From Methanobacteriota archaeon (GTDB taxonomy: Archaea; Thermoplasmatota; Thermoplasmata; SG8-5), in the NCBI GenBank assembly GCA_013791785.1, contig VMTD01000005.1, positions 1 to 63,347 of the forward strand: DNA of 63,347 nucleotides, given 5' to 3'. Position 1 is the stretch's first letter. Each line of letters begins with the position of its first letter. Under the pieces are notes generated by a model. That model was given only the letters and a program-made list of their open reading frames with translations, was not told where the DNA came from and made no database searches. Both the position numbers and the translations under genes were made by a program. Below are positions 1 to 55,219 of this stretch, in pieces.

Positions 1-142
1 AATCGGCTCTCAAGGACAAAAATACTTCGTTTTTCATTTTTCACTTATCACTATTCACTTCAGCCAGTCAATAAGTCCGTAAATCTACAATCGAAAATCT
101 AAAATCTACAATCGTTATTGCTTCATTTCACTGAATACTTAC
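1..142 (+). mobile_element. MITE-A copy 1, cut by the window edge. Holds an inverted AGTGAAN-heptad arm (1-58), ATCTACA/ATCTAAA heptads, and a right terminal inverted repeat ending TTTCACTGAATACTTAC at 142.
   Basis: Bases 12-58 are the reverse complement of 34520-34566 with 1 mismatch. Bases 62-142 match the right halves of the copies at 23078-23218 and 54892-55166. Confidence 0.7.
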
Positions 143-4887: not shown

Positions 4888-4899
4888 TTAAATATATTA
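4888..4899 (-). promoter_or_regulatory. TATA-like box about 24 nt upstream of the acyl-CoA dehydrogenase ATG; implies a leaderless or near-leaderless mRNA
   Basis: The minus strand reads TAATATATTTAA. The spacing matches other genes in this window. Confidence 0.35.
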
Positions 4900-4908
4900 C
4901 ATCGAAAG

Positions 4909-5085
4909 GTAAGAGTTCAGTCTTCTGAAATTTTAGATTTTAGATTTTAGATATTTGCAGGAATACGCCCATCCGTATTTTAGATTTTAGATTTTAGATA
5001 TTTGCAGGAATATGCAACGCCGTCAATCCGTCGTAAATCTACAATCGTCAATCTACAATCTACAATCGTTTCGCTGAATGCTCAC
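4909..5085 (+). mobile_element. MITE-A copy 2, with a perfect 8-bp target-site duplication ATCGAAAG (4901-4908 and 5086-5093)
   Basis: Left end GTAAGAGTTCAGTC, right end CGCTGAATGCTCAC (imperfect TIR). The interior holds two (TTTTAGA)3 blocks, a duplicated core, and ATCTACA heptads. Confidence 0.85.
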
Positions 5086-5093
5086 ATCGAAAG

Positions 5094-8000
5094 TTAAGGT
5101 TCGCGCCACCTGGCCTTCCACACCACCAGCGCGGAGAATGCGACCACCGTGACAATCAGCACGAGCCAGTGCAGCATGAAGGCCGTGGGGTTCATGACAG
5201 TTTCACCCGCATCGGTCGCATGGCGGATTATGGCCGCGGCATCGGACGTCGGCAGAATATGGTCTATTGCATATTCGGTTCCACGGGTTTCGGATTGGGG
5301 TTCGGCATCCTCGCTCATCAAATCATTGGGTGGCTGCACAGAATTTGACATTGTCCATGTGCAATCCGATGTCACATGCACCCAGTAAGCATTGCCCGGA
5401 GACATGGTCACTGAGGAGAGATCGCTGAAGTCCTGTATCCACGGGGATGTTGATTGATACACTGACACCATATCCGCACTTGTGCCTTGAAGAGCATCCA
5501 AGGCCAGCTCCGGCAATATGGACGGATACCCCACCATATTCCATCCTGTGTATAGTTGAATCTGCACTTCCTCAGTTGGGTAGTAGCCCATGATGCCGGT
5601 GGTCAACATCTTGTCCCCGCCATTGGCAGTGAGCTTAATCCAAACGCCCATCTGGTTGTCGATGGTAAAGAGGGTGTTGGTTGTGCTGCCATGCCTGTAG
5701 GTCTTCCAGGTCTTGGTTACGCCATCATACCACTTGGCAACGCTCCATGTTGTGTTTCCATCGCCGTAAACCGTGTCGTTCAGTATGTCCTGAATATTGC
5801 CACTGATGGCTATGGGAAAAGATATGAATGCCCAACTGTCACCTGCGTAACTAGACAGATCGATGAGATAGGGTGCTTCGACAGTCTCTTTTGTGACGGT
5901 TACGGTATCCATTGCAGTGTTGTTGTAAATATCTGAGGCCTCTGCCTCTATGATTACCTCACCGTCCGGTACGGTTGTGCTGTCCCATTGATATACCCAT
6001 TTTCTGAGGAAATGGTCATAAGTTGCCTCTACCGGATCGCCCTTGTTAATGTAAATCCTGACGCCCGTTATGCCACTGGAGTCTCCTGCCTCCACTGTTA
6101 TATTGACCGTTCCACTTACCGTGGAGGAATTTGCTGGATAAGTTATAGAGATAAATGGAGGTAATTGATCAGTGGGTATGGCTATAGCAGTCTTTTCGAT
6201 TGTGTTGTTCTCGTTGCCGCTTTTATCGATGGCAGTGACGGCAAAGTGGTACAGGATATAATTCTCCAGACCGTATATTTCCCAATATGTTGCTCCAGCA
6301 TCGTCCTCGGGAGAGAGGGGATAGTATGTGGCCTCTGCCGTATCGGTGAAATTCCCAGTACTGTAATAAAGTTTGTACCCTGCCAGGTCATTTTCGCTAT
6401 TGGGTAGCCAGGAGACATTCACGATTCCTCCCTGTTGGAGATCGGTCGCCTCGACGTCCTGAACCGGGGCCGGGGGCATTGTATCAACAGTGGTACACCA
6501 CGCTTCTATGGAACTTGGACCCTCGTTGCCTGCAAAATCCATGGCCGTAACAATATAGTAATATGTGGTATCCCTGGTAAGTCCTTGATCCAGGTAGGAG
6601 TTTGTGGTGGCGTTGGCCACGTGCTCATAAGGGCCTCCGGGAACCAGGGCACGATAGACAAGGTACTGGCAAAGGTCAATTTCGATGTTCGCATCCCATA
6701 CGAGGGCAAGGCTCTCTCCCTCAACTCCAGATACCACTTGAAGGCCTGCAACTTGGCCAGGGGATGTTCTGTCTCTGGTGCCGTATATTGTGACATCGTC
6801 AATCCAGAATCCCGTGGAATTTTGTGTCTTGTTTGTGTAAAGGTTGAAAGCCACAATAGCTTCCTTGTGCAGATAGGGAGTGAGATCAATTTCGAATTGC
6901 CACCACCCAGAATAGCTGCCTGTAAGTCCGCCATAATAGTCCCAATTTTCCCCTTCGTCCATGGTTATGCCTATGAATAGGTAGTCACTGGCATATGCGT
7001 GCCCGGTGAGCAGGAACCGGAGCCTGGCTGCCTCCGCGGTCCTTAGGTCGAACGAATGCATGAGATATTCGTCCATGGAGCCGCCGTATTGGCCCGAGAC
7101 GTCGGAGCCGCACCACCAACTGGTGTCGTATGAGTAGTAATCATTGTTCACCTGGTGCCAGTTGGGCTGCACCGGGCTTGTTGTCGTCCAACCGTTCAGG
7201 CCGGATTCCATGTCGTCGAAGAAGAAGATGGAGGCTACCTCTACCTCGTCTATGTACATGCCCTCCCGGGTCATGCTGTAATCGCTATTGAACCAGAAGC
7301 GGATTGTCACAGAGGAGGCACCGCAGAACCCGTCCAGCGAGAGATGGCCGGTGTACCACCATGTTCGCGCCATGATGTCCGGGTCCTCACCGTCATACTG
7401 CCACTCATCATCGCCGTCATTGAGTATCAGAATCGGTGTCCATGCTGTGTCCGTGGAGCGCTTGACTGATACATTGAAAACATCGTAATAATCCTCTGCA
7501 TCCATCCAGTAGATGAAACTGAGGTATGCGTTCGTGTAGCCTGTCAGGTCGACGGTTGTGTCGGCGTAGGTATCCATGTAGTTGTCATAGGACTTTCCGT
7601 AGCCTGTGACCTTTATCTCGTCGATGTACCAGCCCTCCCTGGCGACGCTACCGTCGCTCTCCATGAGGAACATGAGGTATATCTCTGAACCATCGTAGGC
7701 GGAGAGGGATAATGTTTTCGCCTCCCACTTGCAGGCATTCGCATCGTAATCGTTCGGGTCGTAGCCGTTGTCCCTGATTCCCGCATCGGCAGTGTTCCCA
7801 TATGTTGCCAGGGTCGTCCATTCCGGCCCGTCAACCGTGGTTGGAGGAGTTGTGGATACTTTCACATAGGCAAGGTCATAGAAATCCTCCAATGCAAGCC
7901 ATTGCTGGAATGTCAACTCACAGCCAGTGTTGGCTGTGAGATCAAGCGTTGTTATCATGTAGGAACTCATGCTGCTACGATACTGCGGGCCTGTTCCTGT

Positions 8001-9228: not shown

Positions 9229-12228
9229 TCACAGTGTGTAAGATCCCGGGTAATTGTCAACTTGTTCCGGGTGGGAATCACTGTACTCGCTTGTGTATTT
9301 TGGTGCTGCGATGGAGAATGCCGATTCCATGGTGGTGGAACCCTGGCTCTCTATGGCCCACTTGAGGTACCAGTATGTCCAGGCACCCAGGCCGTACTGG
9401 CTGGCATCATACGTATATTCGTTCCAGCCACAGCCCTGTGCAACGTACCGGCCGCAGTTTGCATCATATCCGCTGCCAGTGTAGCGGTATGCTACCTCGT
9501 CCATGCCTCCGCTCCTGCACTCATCCATGAATACGAAAACCTCCACGCTGGCCAGATTTCTCAGGCGATATGAGAATACATTATCTAGGATGCAACCCGC
9601 ACCGTATCCGCTAGCGTCCCAAGCAAACCATTGGGCCGGGTGGCCGTCTTTCTGACCGTCATATGAAGTGCCGGCACTGGCACTGTATCCGGCCTCGGAT
9701 TGATGGCCTCCGTGCCCGCTGAAAGTGATTACAACCTTTGTGCCAGCCACGGCATTGGCTACGATGTTGTCCACTGCACTGTAAATGGCGGCCTCGCTTG
9801 CCTGGCTGTTAAGAAGACTGGTCACTGCGTACCCCTTGCCCTGGAGATATGTGCCCCATTCCTGGGCGTCTTTGTGAGCATAGGAGAGGTCGTTTATGGT
9901 CTTGTAGTCGGATATGCCAATCACAAGGGCGAGTTTATCGCCTGTAACAACACCGCCATCAGTGCTTGATGCCTTTACCGAAAATGCACCACTACCGCTG
10001 TATGATAGTACCATTATGTGGTAAGTTCCAGCGGAGGGATTGGTGATGGTGACAACCTCGTTGGAGGAGGATGTATAGCCCCTGCCGTCGTAAGTGCTGG
10101 TGGTCGGCTGTGAGCCAAATTTAACGTACAAATCAATGTCGTACCCGCTGCCGGTGTTGTATGTCTCCACCTTGAGGGTGGCCTTGCCTGCGGGTACTGC
10201 CACGGTGAAGTATTTTTTGTCGGCAGTTGCGCTCACGCTGCTGGCAATACCAGAGCCGTCAAGCGTCAGAGTTGAGGAAGAGGATGAGCCGGTGGTTGTG
10301 AAGCTATTGCCCGTGCCAGTTGCCATATTGCCGGCAGCATCGGCCGACTTGACCCTGTAATAATACTTAGTGTTGGCTGCAAGTCCGGTAAGCGGTCGAT
10401 TGTGGCTCGTTACATATGTTGAACCGCTCGCAGTCAAACCGTAACTCGTGGTGGTGCCGTACTCCACAACACTCGTCGCAGCTTCGTTGGTGGTCCACGT
10501 AACCGTGGCACCGGTGTCGGTTATGGATGAAACGGCCATGCTGGAAATGGTCGGAGGTGTTATGTCAGTCGGAGTGCTGGATGTGCTCGTTGCCTTGACG
10601 GAGAACGTACCGCCGCCGCTGTAGGAATAAGCCATGATATAATAGGTGCCGGCAGATGGATTGTTAATGGTTATGACTTCACTGGAGGAAGATGTGTAAC
10701 CCCTGCCGTCATAACTGCTCGAGGTGGGCAACGCACCGAGTTTCACATACAGGTCAAGGTCATATCCGCCGCTGGGGTTGTACGTTTCCACCTTTAGAGT
10801 GGCCTTGCCGGTGGGCACAGCAACACTGAAGTATTTCTTGTCCCCGGTGGCACTGACGCTGCTGGCCGCCCCAGAACCATCAAGTGTAATGGCGATAGGT
10901 CCAGAGGCATCCGCGAGGGTTGTGAAACTGCTGCCCGCGCTGGTTGCCGTGTTACCTGCCGCATCGGTTGATTTCACCCTGTAATAATACTTGGTATTGG
11001 CAGTCAGGCTGGAAAGGGCAACGCTGTGGCTCGTAACACCATTGGTTCCGGTTGCAGTGGAACCATATGAAGTGGTGGTACCATACTCAACGACGGAACT
11101 GCTGGCCTCATTGGTGGTCCATGTTACCATGGCACCGTTGATGGTAATTGAAGAAATTGCAACGCTGGATATGGTCGGAGGAGTGGTGTCTGCCGCGCTC
11201 AGGGTGGTAAAGCTGTTGCCAGTGCTCGTGGCAACATTGTTTGCCAGATCTGCTGATTTGACCCTGTAATAATACTTCGTGTTGGCAGCCAAGCTAGTTA
11301 AGGCAATGCTGTGGCTGGTCTTGAGCGTCGTACTACTGGCAGTTGTCCCGTAACTCGTGGTGGTGCCATATTCTACGATGCTGGTCGCAGGTTCATTGGT
11401 TGTCCATGTTATAGTAGCGCCGCTTGATGTTATTGAAGTGACCGCCAGACCCGATATGGTGGGAGGCGTGGCGTCAACACCGGCGAGAGTGGCCTTGACC
11501 CTGGCATTTCCGCTGCCGCTATATGAATTTACCATTATGTAATATGTACCAGAGGCAGGGCTGCTGAGCACAACCTTTTCATTTGAAGAGGATGTATAGC
11601 CTCTGCCGTCATAGGTGCTGGTGGTCGGAAGCGCGCCAAGCTTGACATAGAGGTCAAAGTCACCCGGGCTTGCAGGTCCCTCGGAGTCTATGGTGAGAGA
11701 CAAGCCACCAGATGGTATGGCTATCGAGAAATATTTCTTGTCGCCAGTGGCACTTAGTGACTGGTAAGAGGACCAGGTGCCGGAGTAATTCGGAACCGTC
11801 ACTACAGAGGTTCCACCCGCCGCGGTGGCCTTGAATGTGTAAGATCCGCTGCCGCTGTAAGAGTTCGCCATAACATAGTACGTTCCGGATACTGGATTGG
11901 TGAGGGTTATGGTTTCGGAAGCAGAGTTGGTATAACCGCGCGCATCGTAACTGCTGGTCGTCGGATAGGCCCCTCTTTTTATGTAGAGGTCGAAATCATA
12001 TCCGGTTCCCGTATTGTATGTTTGAGTGGTAAGCGAGGTATAGCCCGTTCCCAGGGTGAAGTAGAAGTAATCTTTCTGTCCAGACGCGCTGAGGCTGCTG
12101 TTCACCGGTACATCCAGGCTCACCTGCTGATTTACTCCATCAGCCAGTGATAAACCTGCTGTCGCCAGAATGCTGACGCCAAATACTACACACACTAACA
12201 AAATCCATACATTGCTTTTCCACATCAT
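9229..12228 (-). CDS. Secreted clan-CD (caspase/legumain-like) cysteine peptidase with an N-terminal array of PPC (pre-peptidase C-terminal-like) and FN3 domains
   Basis: Signal peptide MMWKSNVWILLVCVVFGVSILA with GGAGG upstream. Four PPC-like units (DxDLYVK...GTYYIMV.SYSGSG). Three FN3 units (PPTIS...YGTTTSYG...NTKYYYRVKS.D.AGN). C-terminal LALVIGISDY...ITFSGHGG...FMDECRSGG supplies the His/Cys dyad motifs. Confidence 0.85.
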   Translation of the reverse strand: MMWKSNVWILLVCVVFGVSILATAGLSLADGVNQQVSLDVPVNSSLSASGQKDYFYFTLGTGYTSLTTQTYNTGTGYDFDLYIKRGAYPTTSSYDARGYTNSASETITLTNPVSGTYYVMANSYSGSGSYTFKATAAGGTSVVTVPNYSGTWSSYQSLSATGDKKYFSIAIPSGGLSLTIDSEGPASPGDFDLYVKLGALPTTSTYDGRGYTSSSNEKVVLSSPASGTYYIMVNSYSGSGNARVKATLAGVDATPPTISGLAVTSITSSGATITWTTNEPATSIVEYGTTTSYGTTASSTTLKTSHSIALTSLAANTKYYYRVKSADLANNVATSTGNSFTTLSAADTTPPTISSVAISSITINGAMVTWTTNEASSSVVEYGTTTSYGSTATGTNGVTSHSVALSSLTANTKYYYRVKSTDAAGNTATSAGSSFTTLADASGPIAITLDGSGAASSVSATGDKKYFSVAVPTGKATLKVETYNPSGGYDLDLYVKLGALPTSSSYDGRGYTSSSSEVITINNPSAGTYYIMAYSYSGGGTFSVKATSTSSTPTDITPPTISSMAVSSITDTGATVTWTTNEAATSVVEYGTTTSYGLTASGSTYVTSHNRPLTGLAANTKYYYRVKSADAAGNMATGTGNSFTTTGSSSSSTLTLDGSGIASSVSATADKKYFTVAVPAGKATLKVETYNTGSGYDIDLYVKFGSQPTTSTYDGRGYTSSSNEVVTITNPSAGTYHIMVLSYSGSGAFSVKASSTDGGVVTGDKLALVIGISDYKTINDLSYAHKDAQEWGTYLQGKGYAVTSLLNSQASEAAIYSAVDNIVANAVAGTKVVITFSGHGGHQSEAGYSASAGTSYDGQKDGHPAQWFAWDASGYGAGCILDNVFSYRLRNLASVEVFVFMDECRSGGMDEVAYRYTGSGYDANCGRYVAQGCGWNEYTYDASQYGLGAWTYWYLKWAIESQGSTTMESAFSIAAPKYTSEYSDSHPEQVDNYPGSYTL

Positions 12229-15632: not shown

Positions 15633-16403
15633 TCACGGTTCGCGCCACCTGGCCTTCCACATCACCAGCGCGGAGAATACGACCACCGTGACAATCAGCA
15701 CGAGCCAGTGCAGCATGAAGGCCGTGGGGTCCATGACGGTTTCGCCAGCACCGGTCGCATAGCGGATTATGGCCGCTGCGTTGGACGTGGGAAAGATGTA
15801 GACTATCCATGACAGATTCATTCCGCTCATGTTGGTCAGCATTGCCTCCGAGTAATAGACCGGCGGCAGGAAAACGAATCCGAAGCTGAGTATGTTGGCG
15901 ATGATTCCCAGGGTGTTGGGGCTGGTCTTGTGTTGGTATGTGGCTATGGTGAATCCCATTGCGGCAAGTGCGAGCCAGCAGAGTATCATGGCCCCCAACG
16001 TCACCAGGATTGAAAATGGGTCGAACAGACCCCGGTAAACCCCGTAACACAAGAACGCGATGAATCCCGGGAAGGAAAATATCAGAAATCCGAGAGTGAG
16101 GCCCATGGCATAGGACAGCGGATGAACGGGCATGGCCACCACCATCTCCCTGAGCTTGACATATCTGTCCCAGGTGATGTCCTGTATCGACGCGGTAATG
16201 GCTATGAATCCGATGCTGGATACTATAACACCCACAAGGCCCACGTCCATCATTTCCGCCCCGCCGAAGAGTGTGATGAAGAACAGCGGTATCGCAGCCA
16301 GTCCCACAAGGATCAGGAGCATGAGTGGCTGCCTTTTGATGTCGGGAATGGATTTCATGTAGGCGATTATCCATGTATCTTTGATTATCTTCCTGATGCT
16401 CAT
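15633..16403 (-). CDS. ABC-2 type transporter permease
   Basis: 256 aa with about 6 predicted TM helices. Translationally coupled (ATGA) to the ATPase gene. Confidence 0.85.
   Translation of the reverse strand: MSIRKIIKDTWIIAYMKSIPDIKRQPLMLLILVGLAAIPLFFITLFGGAEMMDVGLVGVIVSSIGFIAITASIQDITWDRYVKLREMVVAMPVHPLSYAMGLTLGFLIFSFPGFIAFLCYGVYRGLFDPFSILVTLGAMILCWLALAAMGFTIATYQHKTSPNTLGIIANILSFGFVFLPPVYYSEAMLTNMSGMNLSWIVYIFPTSNAAAIIRYATGAGETVMDPTAFMLHWLVLIVTVVVFSALVMWKARWREP
15637..15788 (-). repeat. Direct repeat copy 2 (the native permease 3' end); partner at 5098-5249
   Basis: See 5098-5249. Confidence 0.9.
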
Positions 16404-20240: not shown

Positions 20241-20377
20241 GTAAACATTCAGCGAAACAATAACGATTGTAGATTTAGGGATTGTAGATTGTAGATTTAC
20301 GACGAACGGGCATCCTGCCAGCAAAAATCTAAAATCTAAGTTCTAAAATCTAAAATCTCAGAAGACCTACCTCTTAC
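20241..20377 (-). mobile_element. MITE-A copy 3 (reverse orientation)
   Basis: GTAAACATTCAGCG...GATTGTAGATT heptads...core...AATCTAAAATCT heptads...CAGAAGACCTACCTCTTAC. No clear target-site duplication. Confidence 0.75.
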
Positions 20378-20391
20378 GATTACGCAAAAGG

Positions 20392-20399
20392 TTTATTAT
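20392..20399 (+). promoter_or_regulatory. BRE/TATA-like AAAAGGTTTATTAT, centred about 24-25 nt upstream of the DGGGPS ATG
   Basis: Same AAAAG-N-TTTAT motif as upstream of the tRNA, the CBS gene and XPD. Confidence 0.45.
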
Positions 20400-22653: not shown

Positions 22654-22708
22654 GAGAAAGCCCAGCCCTGGTAACAAACGCCAGCCACTTTAGGGGCTGG
22701 TAGTTTAC
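22654..22708. repeat. Hairpin element B, copy 2 (left terminus degenerate)
   Basis: CCCAGCCCTGGTAACAAACGCCAGCCACTTTAGGGGCTGGTAGTTTAC. The terminal GTTTAC holds the TAA stop of the 22705-23022 gene. Confidence 0.6.
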
Positions 22709-23022: not shown

Positions 23023-23077
23023 TTGCCTTCCTCTATAGGCATAATGCGCAGGATGGTTAAATATCTTGTCCTTGCCT

Positions 23078-23218
23078 GTAAGAGTTCAGTCTTCTGAAAT
23101 TTTAGATTTTAGATTTTAGATATTTGCAGGAATATGCAACGCCGTCAATCCGTCGTAAATCTACAATCGTCAATCTACAATCTACAATCGTTATTGCTCC
23201 ATTTCACTGAATACTTAC
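23078..23218 (+). mobile_element. MITE-A copy 4 (canonical, 141 bp), with a 7/8 target-site duplication CCTTGCCT / CCTTGTCT
   Basis: TIRs GTAAGAGTTCAGT / ACTGAATACTTAC. Interior (TTTTAGA)3, core, ATCTACA heptads. The right TIR holds the nitroreductase TAA stop. Confidence 0.85.
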
Positions 23219-23739
23219 CCTTGTCTGCCAAACTCATCATAACTGACAATGGTCTTGATGGCCTTCCTTTTTGCCCCGCCGGTGAGCGTCCTGGCCAGGT
23301 CCATTTTCTTCCGTTCGTAGCCCAGGGCAATCAGGCAGATAACATCATAATTCTCCGGTATCTTGAGCAGCGCTTTCACTTTTTCCACGTCGAAGCTCCC
23401 GACCCAGCACGTCCCCAGGCCTTCTGCCGTTGCTGCCAGGACCAAAGTCTGCAATGCGATGCTTGTGTCAATCGTGTTCCAGTGCGGCGAGGCCTTTCCG
23501 TCCCCGCAACCGACAATCACAACAGGCGTATCCTTGAGGAACTTGGCCCAGGTCCCTTCCGAGAGCGCGGCACGTTTGGCAGGGTCCCGCACAACGATGA
23601 AATGCCATGGCTGGAGGTTCTTGGCCGATGGCGAGAGGCGAGCGGATTCCAGGATTTTCGCGAGTACGTCGTCCGGGACAGGCCTATCGTCATAGGCACG
23701 GACAGATTTTCTTGATTTCACGGTTTCGAAGAACTCCAT
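23215..23739 (-). CDS. Nitroreductase family protein
   Basis: MEFFETVKSRKSVRAY...SPSAKNLQPWHFIVV; 174 aa from the internal ATG at 23739. The longer 301-aa ORF lacks homology-like sequence upstream. Confidence 0.85.
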   Translation of the reverse strand: MEFFETVKSRKSVRAYDDRPVPDDVLAKILESARLSPSAKNLQPWHFIVVRDPAKRAALSEGTWAKFLKDTPVVIVGCGDGKASPHWNTIDTSIALQTLVLAATAEGLGTCWVGSFDVEKVKALLKIPENYDVICLIALGYERKKMDLARTLTGGAKRKAIKTIVSYDEFGRQG

Positions 23740-27718: not shown

Positions 27719-27792
27719 TGGACAGAGCGAGATTCGAACTCGCGGCCTCCTCCATGCCAAGGAGGCGATCTACCGAGCTGATCTATCTGCCC
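27719..27792 (-). tRNA. tRNA-Ala (anticodon GGC), no encoded CCA
   Basis: GGGCAGATAGATCAGCTCGGTAGATCGCCTCCTTGGCATGGAGGAGGCCGCGAGTTCGAATCTCGCTCTGTCCA folds as a cloverleaf. It has the G3:U70 alanine identity pair, anticodon loop TTGGCAT, T-loop TTCGAAT and A73. Confidence 0.92.
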
Positions 27793-31998: not shown

Positions 31999-32049
31999 GC
32001 AATCACCCTGGCAGTATTTTGCCATGGATATTTAACGTTGCGGTGAGAA

Positions 32050-32163
32050 GTAAGTATTCAGTGAAACGATTGTAGATTGTAGATTTACGATTGTAGATTT
32101 ACGACGAACGGACATTCTGCCAGCAAATATCTAAAATCTAAAATCTAAAATCTAAAATTTCAG
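32050..32163 (-). mobile_element. MITE-A copy 5 (reverse orientation). One terminus is missing and the interior is fused to the mnmA 3' end.
   Basis: GTAAGTATTCAGTGAAACGATTGTAGATT...(ATCTAAA)4...TTTCAG. The mnmA TGA stop lies in the subterminal CTGAAA. Confidence 0.75.
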
Positions 32164-34375: not shown

Positions 34376-34465
34376 GTGAACGTCACGGGAAATCCGTGAA
34401 TCCCTAATACCTTTTCCCTATGTATGTTAATGTGGCAATTCGCAGCAGAAATTTCAGGGCTGTAC

Positions 34466-34716
34466 GTAAGAGTTCAGTCTTCTGAAGTTTGCCCGTTAAA
34501 TTGTAGTTTTTAGTGAACAGTGAATAGTGATAAGTGAAAAATGAAAAACGTAGTATTTTTGTCCTTGATAGCCAATTTTTTCACCATTTACCTCCCAACG
34601 TCACTTTTCACTATTCACTTTACACTTTTCACTATTCGCTTCGGCCAGTCAATAAGTCCGTAAATCTACAATCTACAATCTACAATAGTTACTTCTTCAT
34701 TTCACTGAATGCTTAC
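34466..34716 (+). mobile_element. MITE-A copy 6 (composite, 251 bp), with a perfect 8-bp target-site duplication GGCTGTAC (34458-34465 and 34717-34724)
   Basis: TIRs GTAAGAGTTCAGT / ACTGAATGCTTAC. The interior carries a long imperfect palindrome of AGTGAAN / TCACTNT heptads, then (ATCTACA)3. Confidence 0.9.
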
Positions 34717-34767
34717 GGCTGTACAAAAGCTTTATTAGTCTGGAATACCTATATTTGGCTTGATACA

Positions 34768-35322
34768 ATGAAGAGCAACATACCAGTCTCTGAAATCATG
34801 AGCACAGACATACCCCAGATGGAACCTTTCGAAACTGTGGAAGACTCCGCCGCAAGAATGGTGGAGCACGGTACCGGTTGCGTGATCATAACCGAGGATG
34901 GCAATCCCATAGGCATCGTCACCGAGCGCGACATTGTCCGGAAGGTCGTGAGCGCCCGCAAGGCCCCGTCAAAGGTCCAGCTTCGCGACATAATGAGCTC
35001 CCCAATCGTCTGGGTTCCCAGGACAACGGATATCCTGGATGCCGCAAAGCAGATGGCCAAGCTTCACCTTAGAAAATTGGTGGTCATGCACGACGGTCGT
35101 TTCATGGGTGTGGTATCAGCCCAGGACATTCTTCAGATTGCACCGCATTACATCGAGGTCACCAGGGAACTGGCCAACCTTTCCGGAGAGGGCGATGATT
35201 TCATGGCCGCTTCCATCGAGCAGGCTTCCGGTTACTGCGAATCATGCAAGGTATACTCGGACATGCTGGAATATCATGACGGTGCTTTGTTGTGCCCCGG
35301 ATGCAAGGAAAGGGTGGAATAG
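34768..35322 (+). CDS. CBS-domain pair protein with a C-terminal zinc ribbon
   Basis: Two CBS units (VSEIMSTDIP..., LRDIMSSPIVWV...) and CESC...CPGC. The start is at the internal ATG downstream of the MITE. Confidence 0.8.
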   Translation: MKSNIPVSEIMSTDIPQMEPFETVEDSAARMVEHGTGCVIITEDGNPIGIVTERDIVRKVVSARKAPSKVQLRDIMSSPIVWVPRTTDILDAAKQMAKLHLRKLVVMHDGRFMGVVSAQDILQIAPHYIEVTRELANLSGEGDDFMAASIEQASGYCESCKVYSDMLEYHDGALLCPGCKERVE

Positions 35323-35325
35323 AGA

Positions 35326-35506
35326 GATTGTAGATTTATTAATTGCTGCTGGCAGAATGCCCACCCGTATTTTAGATTTTAGATTTTAGATTTTAGATTT
35401 TAGATTTATGCTGAGAATATGCCACGCCGTCAATCCGTCGTAAATCTACAATCTACAATCCCTAAATCTACAATCTACAATCCCTAAATCTACAATAGTC
35501 AATCCC
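35326..35506 (+). repeat. MITE-A-related copy 7 without recognisable TIRs; (TTTTAGA)5 and extended ATCTACA/CCCTAAATCTACA arrays
   Basis: It shares both core segments with copy 2 (4909-5085). No flanking duplication. Confidence 0.65.
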
Positions 35507-35529
35507 TGTCCGAACCCCGCAGTTACCTT

Positions 35530-35537
35530 TTTATAAA
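35530..35537 (+). promoter_or_regulatory. TATA box TTTATAAA centred about 24-25 nt upstream of the pyrF ATG (leaderless-type arrangement)
   Basis: CCTTTTTATAAACACC, then the ATG at 35558. Confidence 0.45.
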
Positions 35538-35557
35538 CACCGCAATTTCCATAGCCC

Positions 35558-36205: not shown

Positions 36206-36819
36206 TGAGCCAGGTTCCTGCGTCCATGAATATTGAATGCCCCGAATGTGAAGATGAAACGCTTCACAAGACCCTCAAGGGCCGCCTCGAAGGCAAGAAG
36301 CTCAAGCTCGTTCTGAAATGCAGCAAGTGCGGAAAGGTTCGCGACGAGGTATTGGAGGCCATTGGCCAAATCCAGATACGGATGATAATCAGCCGGGGCG
36401 ACGTCTCCGAGAGGACAACAGCCATGTTCCCGAATGACTGGGACTTCACGGTGGGGGATGATTTCATGCATGATGATGAACGCCTTCAGGTCACCGGCAT
36501 AGAAGTCAAGGGCGTCAGGGTGGACGGCGCAAAGGTCGGCGAGGTCCAGACGCTTTGGACCAAGAACTTCGACCAGGCCCGGGTAAAGATTTCCGTTAAC
36601 AGGAGCGGTCACACGCGTTCCATGGAGATACTCACCGACCCGGAGGCTGAATTCACTGTCGAGGCCATGATAGACGTAAACAACATTCCCATGAGAATTC
36701 ATTCGATAAAGACCACTGCCGGGCGCATACGGAGAGGCACAGTCGTTGCAAGTGATATCGTTCGAATTTATTGCACCGATACCAGGCCCAGGTCGACAGG
36801 TTACAGGCGCCGGTCGTAA
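36202..36819 (+). CDS. Uncharacterised archaeal zinc-finger protein (COG1326-like by recollection)
   Basis: N-terminal CPEC...CSKC ribbon; 205 aa. ATGA coupling to pyrF. The stop TAA lies in the terminus of hairpin element B. Confidence 0.6.
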   Translation: MMSQVPASMNIECPECEDETLHKTLKGRLEGKKLKLVLKCSKCGKVRDEVLEAIGQIQIRMIISRGDVSERTTAMFPNDWDFTVGDDFMHDDERLQVTGIEVKGVRVDGAKVGEVQTLWTKNFDQARVKISVNRSGHTRSMEILTDPEAEFTVEAMIDVNNIPMRIHSIKTTAGRIRRGTVVASDIVRIYCTDTRPRSTGYRRRS

Positions 36820-36870
36820 ATTATCAACCCCCAAAGGAACTGGCGTTTGTTGCCAGGGCTGGAAGTTTAC
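36816..36870. repeat. Hairpin element B, copy 3 (55 bp)
   Basis: GTAAATTATCAACCCCCAAAGGAACTGGCGTTTGTTGCCAGGGCTGGAAGTTTAC; reverse orientation relative to 53639-53693. Confidence 0.65.
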
Positions 36871-53638: not shown

Positions 53639-53693
53639 GTAAACTTCCAGCCCTGGCAACAAACGCCAGCCACTTTAGGGGCTGGTAGTTTAC
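53639..53693. repeat. Hairpin element B, copy 4 (55 bp, best-preserved palindrome)
   Basis: GTAAACTTCCAGCCC TGGC AACAAAC GCCA GCCACTTTAG GGGCTGGTAGTTTAC. Outer stem 14/15, inner stem TGGC/GCCA. Confidence 0.7.
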
Positions 53694-54891: not shown

Positions 54892-55166
54892 GTGATAGTA
54901 GTATTCTGAAGTTTGCTCGTTAAATTGTAGATTATATATTGATGCTTCCAGTATGCTGTTTTATCAATCTTTTTTAGTGAACAGTGAATAGTGATAAGTG
55001 AAAAATGAAAAACGTAGTATTTTTGTCCTTGATAGCCAATTTTTTCACCATTTACCTCCCAACGTCACTTTTCACTATTCACTTTACACTTTTCACTAAT
55101 CACTTCGGCCAGTCAATAAGTCCGTAAATCTACAATCGTTATTGCTTCATTTCACTAAATACTTCC
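54892..55166 (+). mobile_element. MITE-A copy 8 (composite type, degenerate termini)
   Basis: 55 nt (54974-55028) are identical to 34510-34564, the same heptad-palindrome module. Ends GTGATAGTAGTATTCTGAAG / TTTCACTAAATACTTCC. Flanks GGATGGTA / TGACGGCA match at 5/8. Confidence 0.7.
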
Positions 55167-55219
55167 TGACGGCAAATTTTATGGTGTATCATTCCATGGC
55201 CCCTTCAAGAGGTTTTGAA

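Follow-up and report, generated by a model that had tools for sequence, protein, structure and literature searches.

The 63,347-nucleotide contig VMTD01000005.1 of the archaeal assembly GCA_013791785.1 (Thermoplasmata), referred to below as the window, is ordinary chromosome that encodes MetRS, pyrF, ribosomal protein S15, aIF5A, GGGP synthase and several large proteins of the cell surface. Over 10-20 kb it is 99.97-100% identical to independent assemblies of this population, which contain the same insertions. Eight related repeats are dispersed over the window, and one of them, a 251-bp element at 34466-34716, lies just upstream of the predicted promoter of a gene for a CBS-domain protein. 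The repeats are described here as MITEs (miniature inverted-repeat transposable elements), whose termini are shared with IS66-type insertion sequences and most of whose copies lie at a fixed, short distance from TATA-like boxes.

A repeat search and BLAST comparison of the copies with the window place the eight repeats at exactly the intervals listed in an earlier, sequence-only reading of this DNA (Table 1). The copies are 114-275 bp long and are found in both orientations, as that reading noted, at a density of about one per 8 kb; their coding capacity is nil, since the overlapping open reading frames (ORFs) are only run-ins of adjacent genes. The 13-mer GTAAGNRTTCAGT has seven mismatch-free occurrences in the window, each of which is the end of a copy. 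The description of the 251-bp element (copy 6) is confirmed in the sequence: it has inverted ends of the form GTAAG...CTTAC, starting with GTAAGAGTTCAGT and ending with ACTGAATGCTTAC, and is flanked by a perfect duplication of GGCTGTAC. The condition of the other listed copies is more varied, because copy 7 has no termini, the left end of copy 5 is short by 16 nt, copies 3 and 8 are decayed (3/8 and 5/8 matches between flanks) and copy 1 is cut by the window start. Copy 1 is complete in two other loci, L183 and L181, as a 237-bp element with the perfect duplication ATTCCGCA on both sides. Bases 1-40 of the window mismatch three other assemblies of the locus, which align from base 41 only, and this disagreement indicates that they probably arose by a fold-back during assembly, within the palindromic MITE with which the contig ends. 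The same 40 bases resemble an inverted copy of the element's other arm.

The statement that all copies are intergenic nearly holds, with the exception of two copies that provide stop codons. The right terminus of copy 4 supplies the stop codon of a nitroreductase gene (23215-23217), and the truncated end of copy 5 supplies that of MnmA (32160-32162). The nitroreductase now ends in FGRQG and not in FGRQGQDI, three codons having been removed by the insertion of copy 4, and MnmA ends in GGIIEESA, compared with GGIIE in a relative.

Both ends of the elements carry, in inverted orientation, the 22-nt motif GTAAG-NN-TTCAGT-NNNN-TGAAG, and the terminal inverted repeats GTAAGAGTTCAGT and ACTGAATRCTTAC agree at 11 of 13 positions. 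The left 22 nt (GTAAGAGTTCAGTSTTYTGAAG) are common to all subfamilies, as are some 45 nt at the right end (...AATCTACAATNGTNAC.CCTTCATTTCACTGAATRCTTAC). When one genome per species was scanned for the terminal motif, at least 82 loci matched; about a dozen of the matches listed are chance matches in bacteria, and the rough expectation for the information content of the motif is about 20. More than 60 further loci of the family lie in at least nine metagenome-assembled genomes (MAGs) of Thermoplasmata or Methanomassiliicoccales and in a few of Methanomicrobiales, many of them at contig ends. A scan of viral contigs with the same motif gave two matches only, both chance matches inside coding sequence. 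Two loci (L023 and L018) whose ends resembled those of full insertion sequences turned out to be short remnants.

The expectation that copies elsewhere would also be flanked by duplicated 8-mers is borne out, since 10 of the 11 complete copies in other genomes, among the matches listed, have a perfect 8-bp duplication, each a different one (L005, L008, L027, L029, L030, L056, L064, L077, L080 and L081). In the window, perfect duplications flank copy 2, copy 6 and the completed copy 1, and copy 4 has a 7/8 match. Of all 17 copies in which both termini are present, the 8-bp duplication is perfect in 13 and matches at 7/8 in one; the remaining three are the two decayed copies and L039. Comparison with related species, in which the CBS protein is 79-83% identical, revealed empty sites at three of the window insertions. 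The spacer between the aminotransferase and CBS genes is without the 251-bp element in L092, L093 and L094, where the gap in the alignment corresponds to the element. The spacer between the CBS gene and pyrF is 41-45 bp in L093 and L089 vs 235 bp in the window, and in L093 the 275-bp element is missing from the spacer before the M32 peptidase gene. We consider it almost certain that the elements constitute a MITE family.

The copies also share a position relative to the genes that they adjoin. Outward from an element, the 8-nt duplication is followed by about 6 nt, often purine-rich and resembling a transcription factor B recognition element (BRE; AAAAGC, AAAAGG, GAAAAG), and then by a TATA-like box; copies 2 and 8 have a similar layout with slightly shorter spacing (Table 1). 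Whether the left or the right end faces the box varies. The sequence-only reading put the insertion of copy 6 at 7 nt upstream of the BRE/TATA-like motif of the CBS gene, which has to be corrected: the element end is 8 nt, the length of the duplication, from AAAAGC and 14 nt from TTTATTAG. Its remark on the promoter was understated, for the proximity to BRE/TATA motifs is a rule of the whole family and not a quirk of one copy. The BRE and TATA motifs before the CBS gene are present in relatives lacking the element and are thus host DNA.

To quantify this layout, 87 distinct flanks were read outward from MITE ends and insertion-sequence-like ends of the window and the archaeal loci, without prior choice of sides or offsets. 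The A+T content is 0.70-0.82 at flank positions 15-21, compared with 0.32 and 0.36 at positions 1 and 8, and the duplicated 8-mer has no strong consensus, G/C being favoured at its end positions. Boxes were scored with the literature consensus TTTAWATA, allowing at most one mismatch. Forward matches number 16 at offset 6 past the duplication and 0-4 at each other offset from 0 to 43 (Poisson probability 3e-15). When either orientation of the box is accepted, offset 6 has matches in 24 of the 87 flanks; the mean is 1.3 per offset, and the other offsets have 0-7 matches each. The either-orientation criterion is passed by 12 of 20 complete elements, compared with 19% of hypothetical targets up to 80 nt away (p = 7e-5). 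An outward ORF follows 24 of 34 TATA-bearing flanks vs 20 of 50 others. A criterion of an 8-mer with at least seven A/T was dropped as too lax, because A-rich BREs displaced the offsets; the decisive results were the distribution of offsets in all 87 flanks and the comparison that accepts either box orientation.

The interiors of the subfamilies are unrelated to one another in sequence. They are non-coding and dyad-symmetric, with tandem 7-mers arranged around a small palindrome: ATTTTAG and GATTGTA arrays around GCAGGAATATGCC in one type, GGGAAKC arrays around GGAATGGCTG...CAGCCATTGA in another and AGTGAAW arrays in the 251-bp type of this window. Each interior folds as a long hairpin, with z-scores of -2 to -7.8 relative to shuffled sequences. 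An Rfam search of the whole window at gathering thresholds returned only the tRNA at 27719-27792, and the MITEs match no family.

A candidate source of transposase for such non-coding elements was found outside the window. IS66-family ends begin as a rule with 5'-GTAA(G). The sequence-only reading had named an IS66-like enzyme as candidate mobilizer, and DDE_Tnp_IS66/transpos_IS66 proteins are indeed encoded by elements that share the terminal motif and make 8-bp duplications. In a Methanomicrobiales MAG (L082), an element of 1696 bp shares the 13-nt termini, is flanked by the duplication GGAAATAG and encodes a 63-aa DUF2080 protein and a 485-aa transposase; the latter matches Pfam DDE_Tnp_IS66 (PF03050; 2e-33), zf-IS66 (6e-9) and NCBIfam transpos_IS66 (NF033517; 8e-70), above the curated cut-offs. 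In a Thermoplasmata MAG (L086), the left end of a 1626-bp element (duplication AGGTAGAC) agrees with that of the MITEs at 25 of 26 positions; the left end of L177 agrees with the same MITE end at all 22 positions compared, and one end of the 1706-bp element L101 (duplication CATAAATT) matches the MITE right end at 21 of 22. PF03050 and PF13005 are also found in L086 and L175-L178, and GTAAG..TTCAG ends with 8-bp duplications extend to more distant IS66 relatives. The sources of the partners are other Thermoplasmata and Methanomicrobiales MAGs and unassigned metagenome contigs.

The partner elements (1.6-1.7 kb) carry only the DUF2080 and transposase genes, and they belong to the single-transposase ISBst12-like group because TnpA and TnpB of canonical IS66 are absent. 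DUF2080 is labelled transposase-associated by NCBIfam; it matches no other Pfam family at E up to 10 and has no informative match among solved structures. The IS66 target duplication is 8 bp (PMC6778807), and ISDge4, a single-ORF member of the ISBst12 group, combines an 8-bp duplication with GTAAC/GTGAC..CTCAGCA ends (PMC12898284). The absence of a transposase gene from the window, as stated earlier, is supported: a tblastn search for the IS66-type transposase in the window and all retrieved loci matched L082 only, and none of the 40 larger window ORFs scanned has a transposase domain. Autonomous elements with matching termini, which that reading proposed to look for, were found in other archaeal MAGs (L082, L086, L101, L177) and none in the organism's own, fragmented assemblies; three NCBI-sourced transposase homologues (P0050, P0060 and P0067) belong to other MAGs. 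The target pattern recurs in the confirmed autonomous element L086, as AGGTAGAC, AAAAGG and TTTATATA, and in a high-copy repeat end of the Thermoplasmata MAG CAZTGJ01 the box is at offset 6 in 11 of 29 flanks (forward orientation only, up to two mismatches). Distant bacterial IS66 relatives have no TATA box, as expected.

From the identical termini, the equal duplication length and the empty sites, we infer that the MITEs are mobilized in trans, by the DDE transposase of an ISBst12-like IS66-family element with a DUF2080 gene. An IS66-type mobilizer is likely on these sequence comparisons. The transposase would recognize the shared terminal motif and make 8-bp staggered cuts, and the transposition complex would recognize the BRE/TATA region, the duplicated 8 bp lying at -14 to -7 from the TATA start. 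The element would then land just upstream of the BRE and leave the BRE, the TATA box and the gene intact. The targeting cue could be sequence, intrinsic DNA shape or the bend imposed by bound TATA-binding protein and transcription factor B (TBP/TFB), and the small DUF2080 protein may help in targeting. The MITEs would inherit the target preference because they borrow the enzyme. Promoter-proximal landing is likely to be a low-cost 'safe haven', and about one copy per 8 kb could be tolerated in a compact genome because such landing spares the core promoter and the gene. The combination of a MITE family, IS66-type mobilization in trans and a target choice relative to promoters is a reading in which we have considerable confidence. 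That the choice is active, beyond the survival of harmless insertions, is probable, and we incline, a little more cautiously, to the view that an IS66-family transposon and MITEs of Thermoplasmata read the core promoter and integrate with nucleotide precision upstream of the BRE.

Several observations weigh against this reading. The TATA boxes are predicted by consensus and position only. With forward-oriented TTTAWATA alone, 4 of the 20 complete elements match compared with 8.5% of targets, which is not significant (p = 0.08), and three autonomous copies of the Methanomicrobiales type (L082, L087 and L101) are without a clear TATA box at offset 6. All insertions seen are survivors, and survivor bias certainly contributes to their location. 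On the side of the mobilizer, the similarity between MITEs and insertion sequences is confined to the terminal 22-26 nt, so that the MITEs are not deletion derivatives, and the autonomous IS66-type element was not found in the organism's fragmented assemblies (GCA_018900055.1, GCA_018899975.1, GCA_018903355.1 and ERZ27247124). The complete copy L039 is flanked by unrelated 8-mers.

Of the alternatives, the one that survives best is random insertion of IS66-type MITEs, followed by selection that removes other insertions from a compact genome and so leaves the TATA-adjacent ones. The restriction of the data to surviving insertions and the three autonomous copies that lack the pattern fit this explanation, as do very short spacers: the duplication of copy 2 abuts the stop codon of one gene and is 1 nt from the AT-rich box of its neighbour, and copy 4 cost the nitroreductase three codons. 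Selection alone, however, permits insertion at any distance upstream of the BRE and predicts no peak at a single nucleotide, whereas the observed distribution is nucleotide-sharp, with 24 flanks at offset 6. This favours active target choice. Copy 6, moreover, had about 40 nt of free spacer and yet was inserted at its promoter-proximal extreme, and alternative targets within 80 nt pass the box criterion at 19%, against 60% for the observed sites. Selection as the whole explanation is therefore unlikely.

A more doubtful proposal, compatible with promoter-directed IS66-type mobilization, is that the hairpin interiors are functional cargo, either a structured RNA or a protein-binding array, spread by IS66-type ends. 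It draws on the retention of the dyad-symmetric architecture in sequence-unrelated subfamilies with z-scores down to -7.8, on the intact arrays of terminus-less copies (35326-35506 and L092) and on copy 8, the interior of which is 99% identical to that of copy 6 over 167 nt despite mutated termini (four changes at the left, including a 2-nt deletion, and two to three at the right). Against it, the interiors have no Rfam match and MITEs commonly have hairpin interiors; moreover, arrays can persist through slippage, and interiors can become alike through gene conversion between copies. For copy 8, gene conversion of interiors and preferential decay of termini are both possible. We read the interiors as fast-evolving hairpin filler. 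Independent mobility of terminus-less interiors was set aside, since only 2 of about 19 array clusters examined are truly without termini, a count that also tells against the cargo proposal; three further clusters scored as end-less only through mutated, truncated or out-of-margin ends. Of the two, L092 3488-3752, from a related species, is a terminus-less composite in which an A-type array in the opposite orientation has a B-type core nested within it, and it occupies the same CBS-pyrF spacer as copy 7 (window 35323-35557).

It is very improbable that another transposase family with 8-bp duplications (ISL3, IS256, IS1595 or ISH1-type IS5) mobilizes the MITEs and that the likeness to IS66 ends is coincidental. 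The short extent of the shared termini and the lack of an IS66-type element in the organism's assemblies leave some room for it. However, the ends identical at 22/22, 25/26 and 21/22 positions belong to elements that encode IS66 transposases, occur in the same archaeal class and make the same 8-bp duplication; L086 and the CAZTGJ01 repeat ends, the latter taken as autonomous by end similarity alone, show the same target pattern, and no other transposase with such ends turned up. Finally, the repeats are intergenic and promoter-proximal and they break and confuse assemblies, but conserved syntenic regulatory DNA, named earlier as the refuting case, is ruled out by the empty sites at orthologous loci, and REP-like (repetitive extragenic palindromic) DNA or an assembly artefact is hardly conceivable given a different perfect 8-bp duplication for each copy and the identical sequence obtained from independent assemblies.

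Prokaryotic MITEs include the Sulfolobus SM elements, haloarchaeal and Methanosarcina MITEs and the Neisseria Correia elements. The window elements resemble them in being short, non-coding, multi-copy and mostly intergenic, with inverted repeats shared with insertion sequences, target duplications and hairpins, but they share only 22-26 nt with the parental insertion sequence and have interchangeable hairpins of 7-mer arrays in place of a deletion-derived interior. Among archaeal MITE families, no other is known to us that occupies a nucleotide-precise position at the core promoter and, to our knowledge, no target preference has been described for IS66-family elements. A literature search gave no prior account of IS66-derived archaeal MITEs, of MITEs in Thermoplasmata or Methanomassiliicoccales, or of TATA-directed insertion in archaea, and no report of target specificity in this IS66 branch, which is provisional because the main reviews of IS66 and of archaeal insertion sequences lay outside the search. 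In uncultured Thermoplasmata, the elements described here form a new family of MITEs, IS66 in type (ISBst12-like and DUF2080-associated). Members of the ISBst12 group (ISBst12, ISDge4) resemble the partners in their GTAA(G/C)..(T/C)TCAG ends and 8-bp duplications (PMC12898284; PMC6778807); the partners encode a DDE transposase that matches PF03050/NF033517, and have no TnpA/TnpB genes. In contrast, a small DUF2080 gene precedes the transposase gene in the archaeal partners, and the window elements are protein-less and sit at a fixed distance from TATA boxes.

The closest functional parallel among prokaryotes, not a case of homology, is with TnGBS and its ISLre2/ISKra4 relatives. The insertion site of TnGBS lies 15-17 bp upstream of sigma-A promoters (PMC3942029), and TnGBS, ISLre2 and the ISKra4 group are likewise DDE transposons positioned at a fixed short distance upstream of promoters, likely by the same logic of neutral landing. 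They differ in their Mutator-like transposase, bacterial hosts and reference to the -35 box, whereas the partners described here match only IS66-family models; TnGBS-type insertion is also mostly in one orientation, whereas either end of the window family can point toward the promoter. ISH6 is an archaeal Mutator-like insertion sequence with a target bias that perhaps favours promoter regions (PMC3942029). It duplicates the AT-rich motif AANATNTT itself, whereas in the window family the TATA box remains intact 6 nt beyond the duplicated 8-mer. In eukaryotes, the integrases of the retrotransposons Ty3 and Ty1 of yeast and Tf1 of fission yeast are tethered by TFIIIB, Pol III or Sap1. There too, the transcription machinery or promoter architecture positions integration in a safe haven upstream of genes, although those elements are eukaryotic retrotransposons and no tethering factor is known for the window family.

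If correct, the promoter-directed reading would give Archaea a first described promoter-targeting transposon and this IS66 branch a first target specificity; the system would be an archaeal counterpart of bacterial TnGBS and yeast Ty3 and a new archaeal case of mobile DNA that uses the transcription apparatus as a landmark. IS66 elements are widespread and their transposition and target choice are poorly understood, and a clear target rule would offer a handle on the transposase. Each insertion replaces the DNA directly upstream of a core promoter and is thus a plausible source of regulatory variation, and in at least two cases a copy has altered the 3' end of a gene. The family also breaks, and probably mis-joins, assemblies of uncultured Thermoplasmata, so that masking it would improve binning and annotation. 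The coordinates of the copies and of their flanking motifs are collected in Table 1.

Table 1. MITE copies of the window with their duplications, outward flanks and predicted promoter motifs
Feature	Position	Strand	Description
MITE copy 1	1-142	+	right-hand part only, 251-bp subtype; right duplication TGCGGAAT at 143-150
Copy 1 flank			ATTCCGCA, GTTCAA, box TTTATATA
MITE copy 2	4909-5085	+	177 bp, internal 47-bp duplication
Copy 2 target-site duplications	4901-4908 and 5086-5093		ATCGAAAG, perfect
TATA-like motif, acyl-CoA dehydrogenase gene	4888-4900		TTAAATATATTAC, faced by left end of copy 2
MITE copy 3	20241-20377	-	137 bp, mutated termini, decayed duplication (3/8)
Copy 3 flank	20378-20399		GATTACGC, AAAAGG, box TTTATTAT, after copy 3 and upstream of UbiA gene
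MITE copy 4	23078-23218	+	canonical 141-bp form
Copy 4 duplications	23070-23077 and 23219-23226		CCTTGCCT and CCTTGTCT, 7/8 match
Copy 4 flank			AGGCAAGG, ACAAGA, box TATTTAAC
TATA box facing left end of copy 4	23056-23063	-	14 nt away
MITE copy 5	32050-32163	-	114 bp, first 16 nt of left terminus gone
Copy 5 flank			TTCTCACC, GCAACG, box TTAAATAT
TATA box, thiazole kinase gene	32028-32035		14 nt from intact end of copy 5
MITE copy 6	34466-34716	+	251 bp, intact termini, AGTGAAW-type hairpin interior
Copy 6 target-site duplication	34458-34465 (left) and 34717-34724 (right)		GGCTGTAC, perfect 8 bp
Copy 6 flank			GGCTGTAC, AAAAGC, box TTTATTAG
BRE-like and TATA-like motifs, CBS-domain gene	34725-34738	+	AAAAGC and TTTATTAG; ATG at 34768
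MITE copy 7	35326-35506	+	181 bp, without both termini, heptamer arrays intact
TATA box, pyrF	35528-35536		copy 7 ends 21 nt upstream
MITE copy 8	54892-55166	+	275 bp, mutated termini, 40-bp extra palindrome; flanks match 5/8
Box, M32 peptidase gene	55178-55185		TTTATGGT; copy 8 upstream

Some related loci in other assemblies are of interest. In GCA_018899975.1 (JAHIHF010000176.1), L181 6417-6646 is a hybrid MITE with unmatched flanks, through which the contig passes from copy 4, on its nitroreductase side, to copy 2, on its acyl-CoA dehydrogenase side, without the intervening 18 kb. The dropped 18-kb segment carries aIF5A and GGGP synthase, so that a real deletion is less likely than a chimeric assembly across an identical stretch of 94 bp. 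At least 29 contigs of the MAG CAZTGJ01 (SRP077602_co5_212; L014, L017, L025 and about 30 other loci) break off about 50 nt into one and the same insertion-sequence-like end (GTAAGAGTTCAGTGATCTGAAGCCCTCC...). This repeat is probably a very high-copy, assembly-fragmenting autonomous element, the assignment being based on its resemblance to the L177 ends; no transposase gene was seen on the CAZTGJ01 contigs that bear the repeat end. A Methanomicrobiales MAG contains a 36-bp perfect palindrome, GTAAGTGTTCAGTG-ATCTGAAG-CACTGAACACTTAC (L038 3657-3692 and L059 3921-3956), which resembles two fused termini with little else and has no clear duplication.

Three bacterial-type IS66 relatives (L114, L120 and L122) lie about 20 nt past apparent tRNA 3' ends, the T-arm having been recognized by eye, and these together with L132 and L148 share the flank motif GAT-TTGCAGGA, which starts about 6 nt from their 8-bp duplication. 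The reading of a target at a fixed offset may be a wider trait of this IS66 branch.

The window contains other repeats as well. A second family consists of a 55-bp palindromic element, GTAAACTTCCAGCCC...GGGCTGGTAGTTTAC, at 22654-22708, 36816-36870 and 53639-53693, with a partial match on the minus strand near 850; each copy closely follows the 3' end of a gene and is not flanked by a duplication, and a fragment of the palindrome is also found inside MITE copies of another MAG (L041 and L045). A 170-nt stretch at the 3' ends of two surface-protein genes (5098-5267 and 15637-15806) is 89% identical between them, and the gene for a 999-aa PPC/caspase-domain protein (9962-12000) contains internal tandem repeats of about 620 nt.

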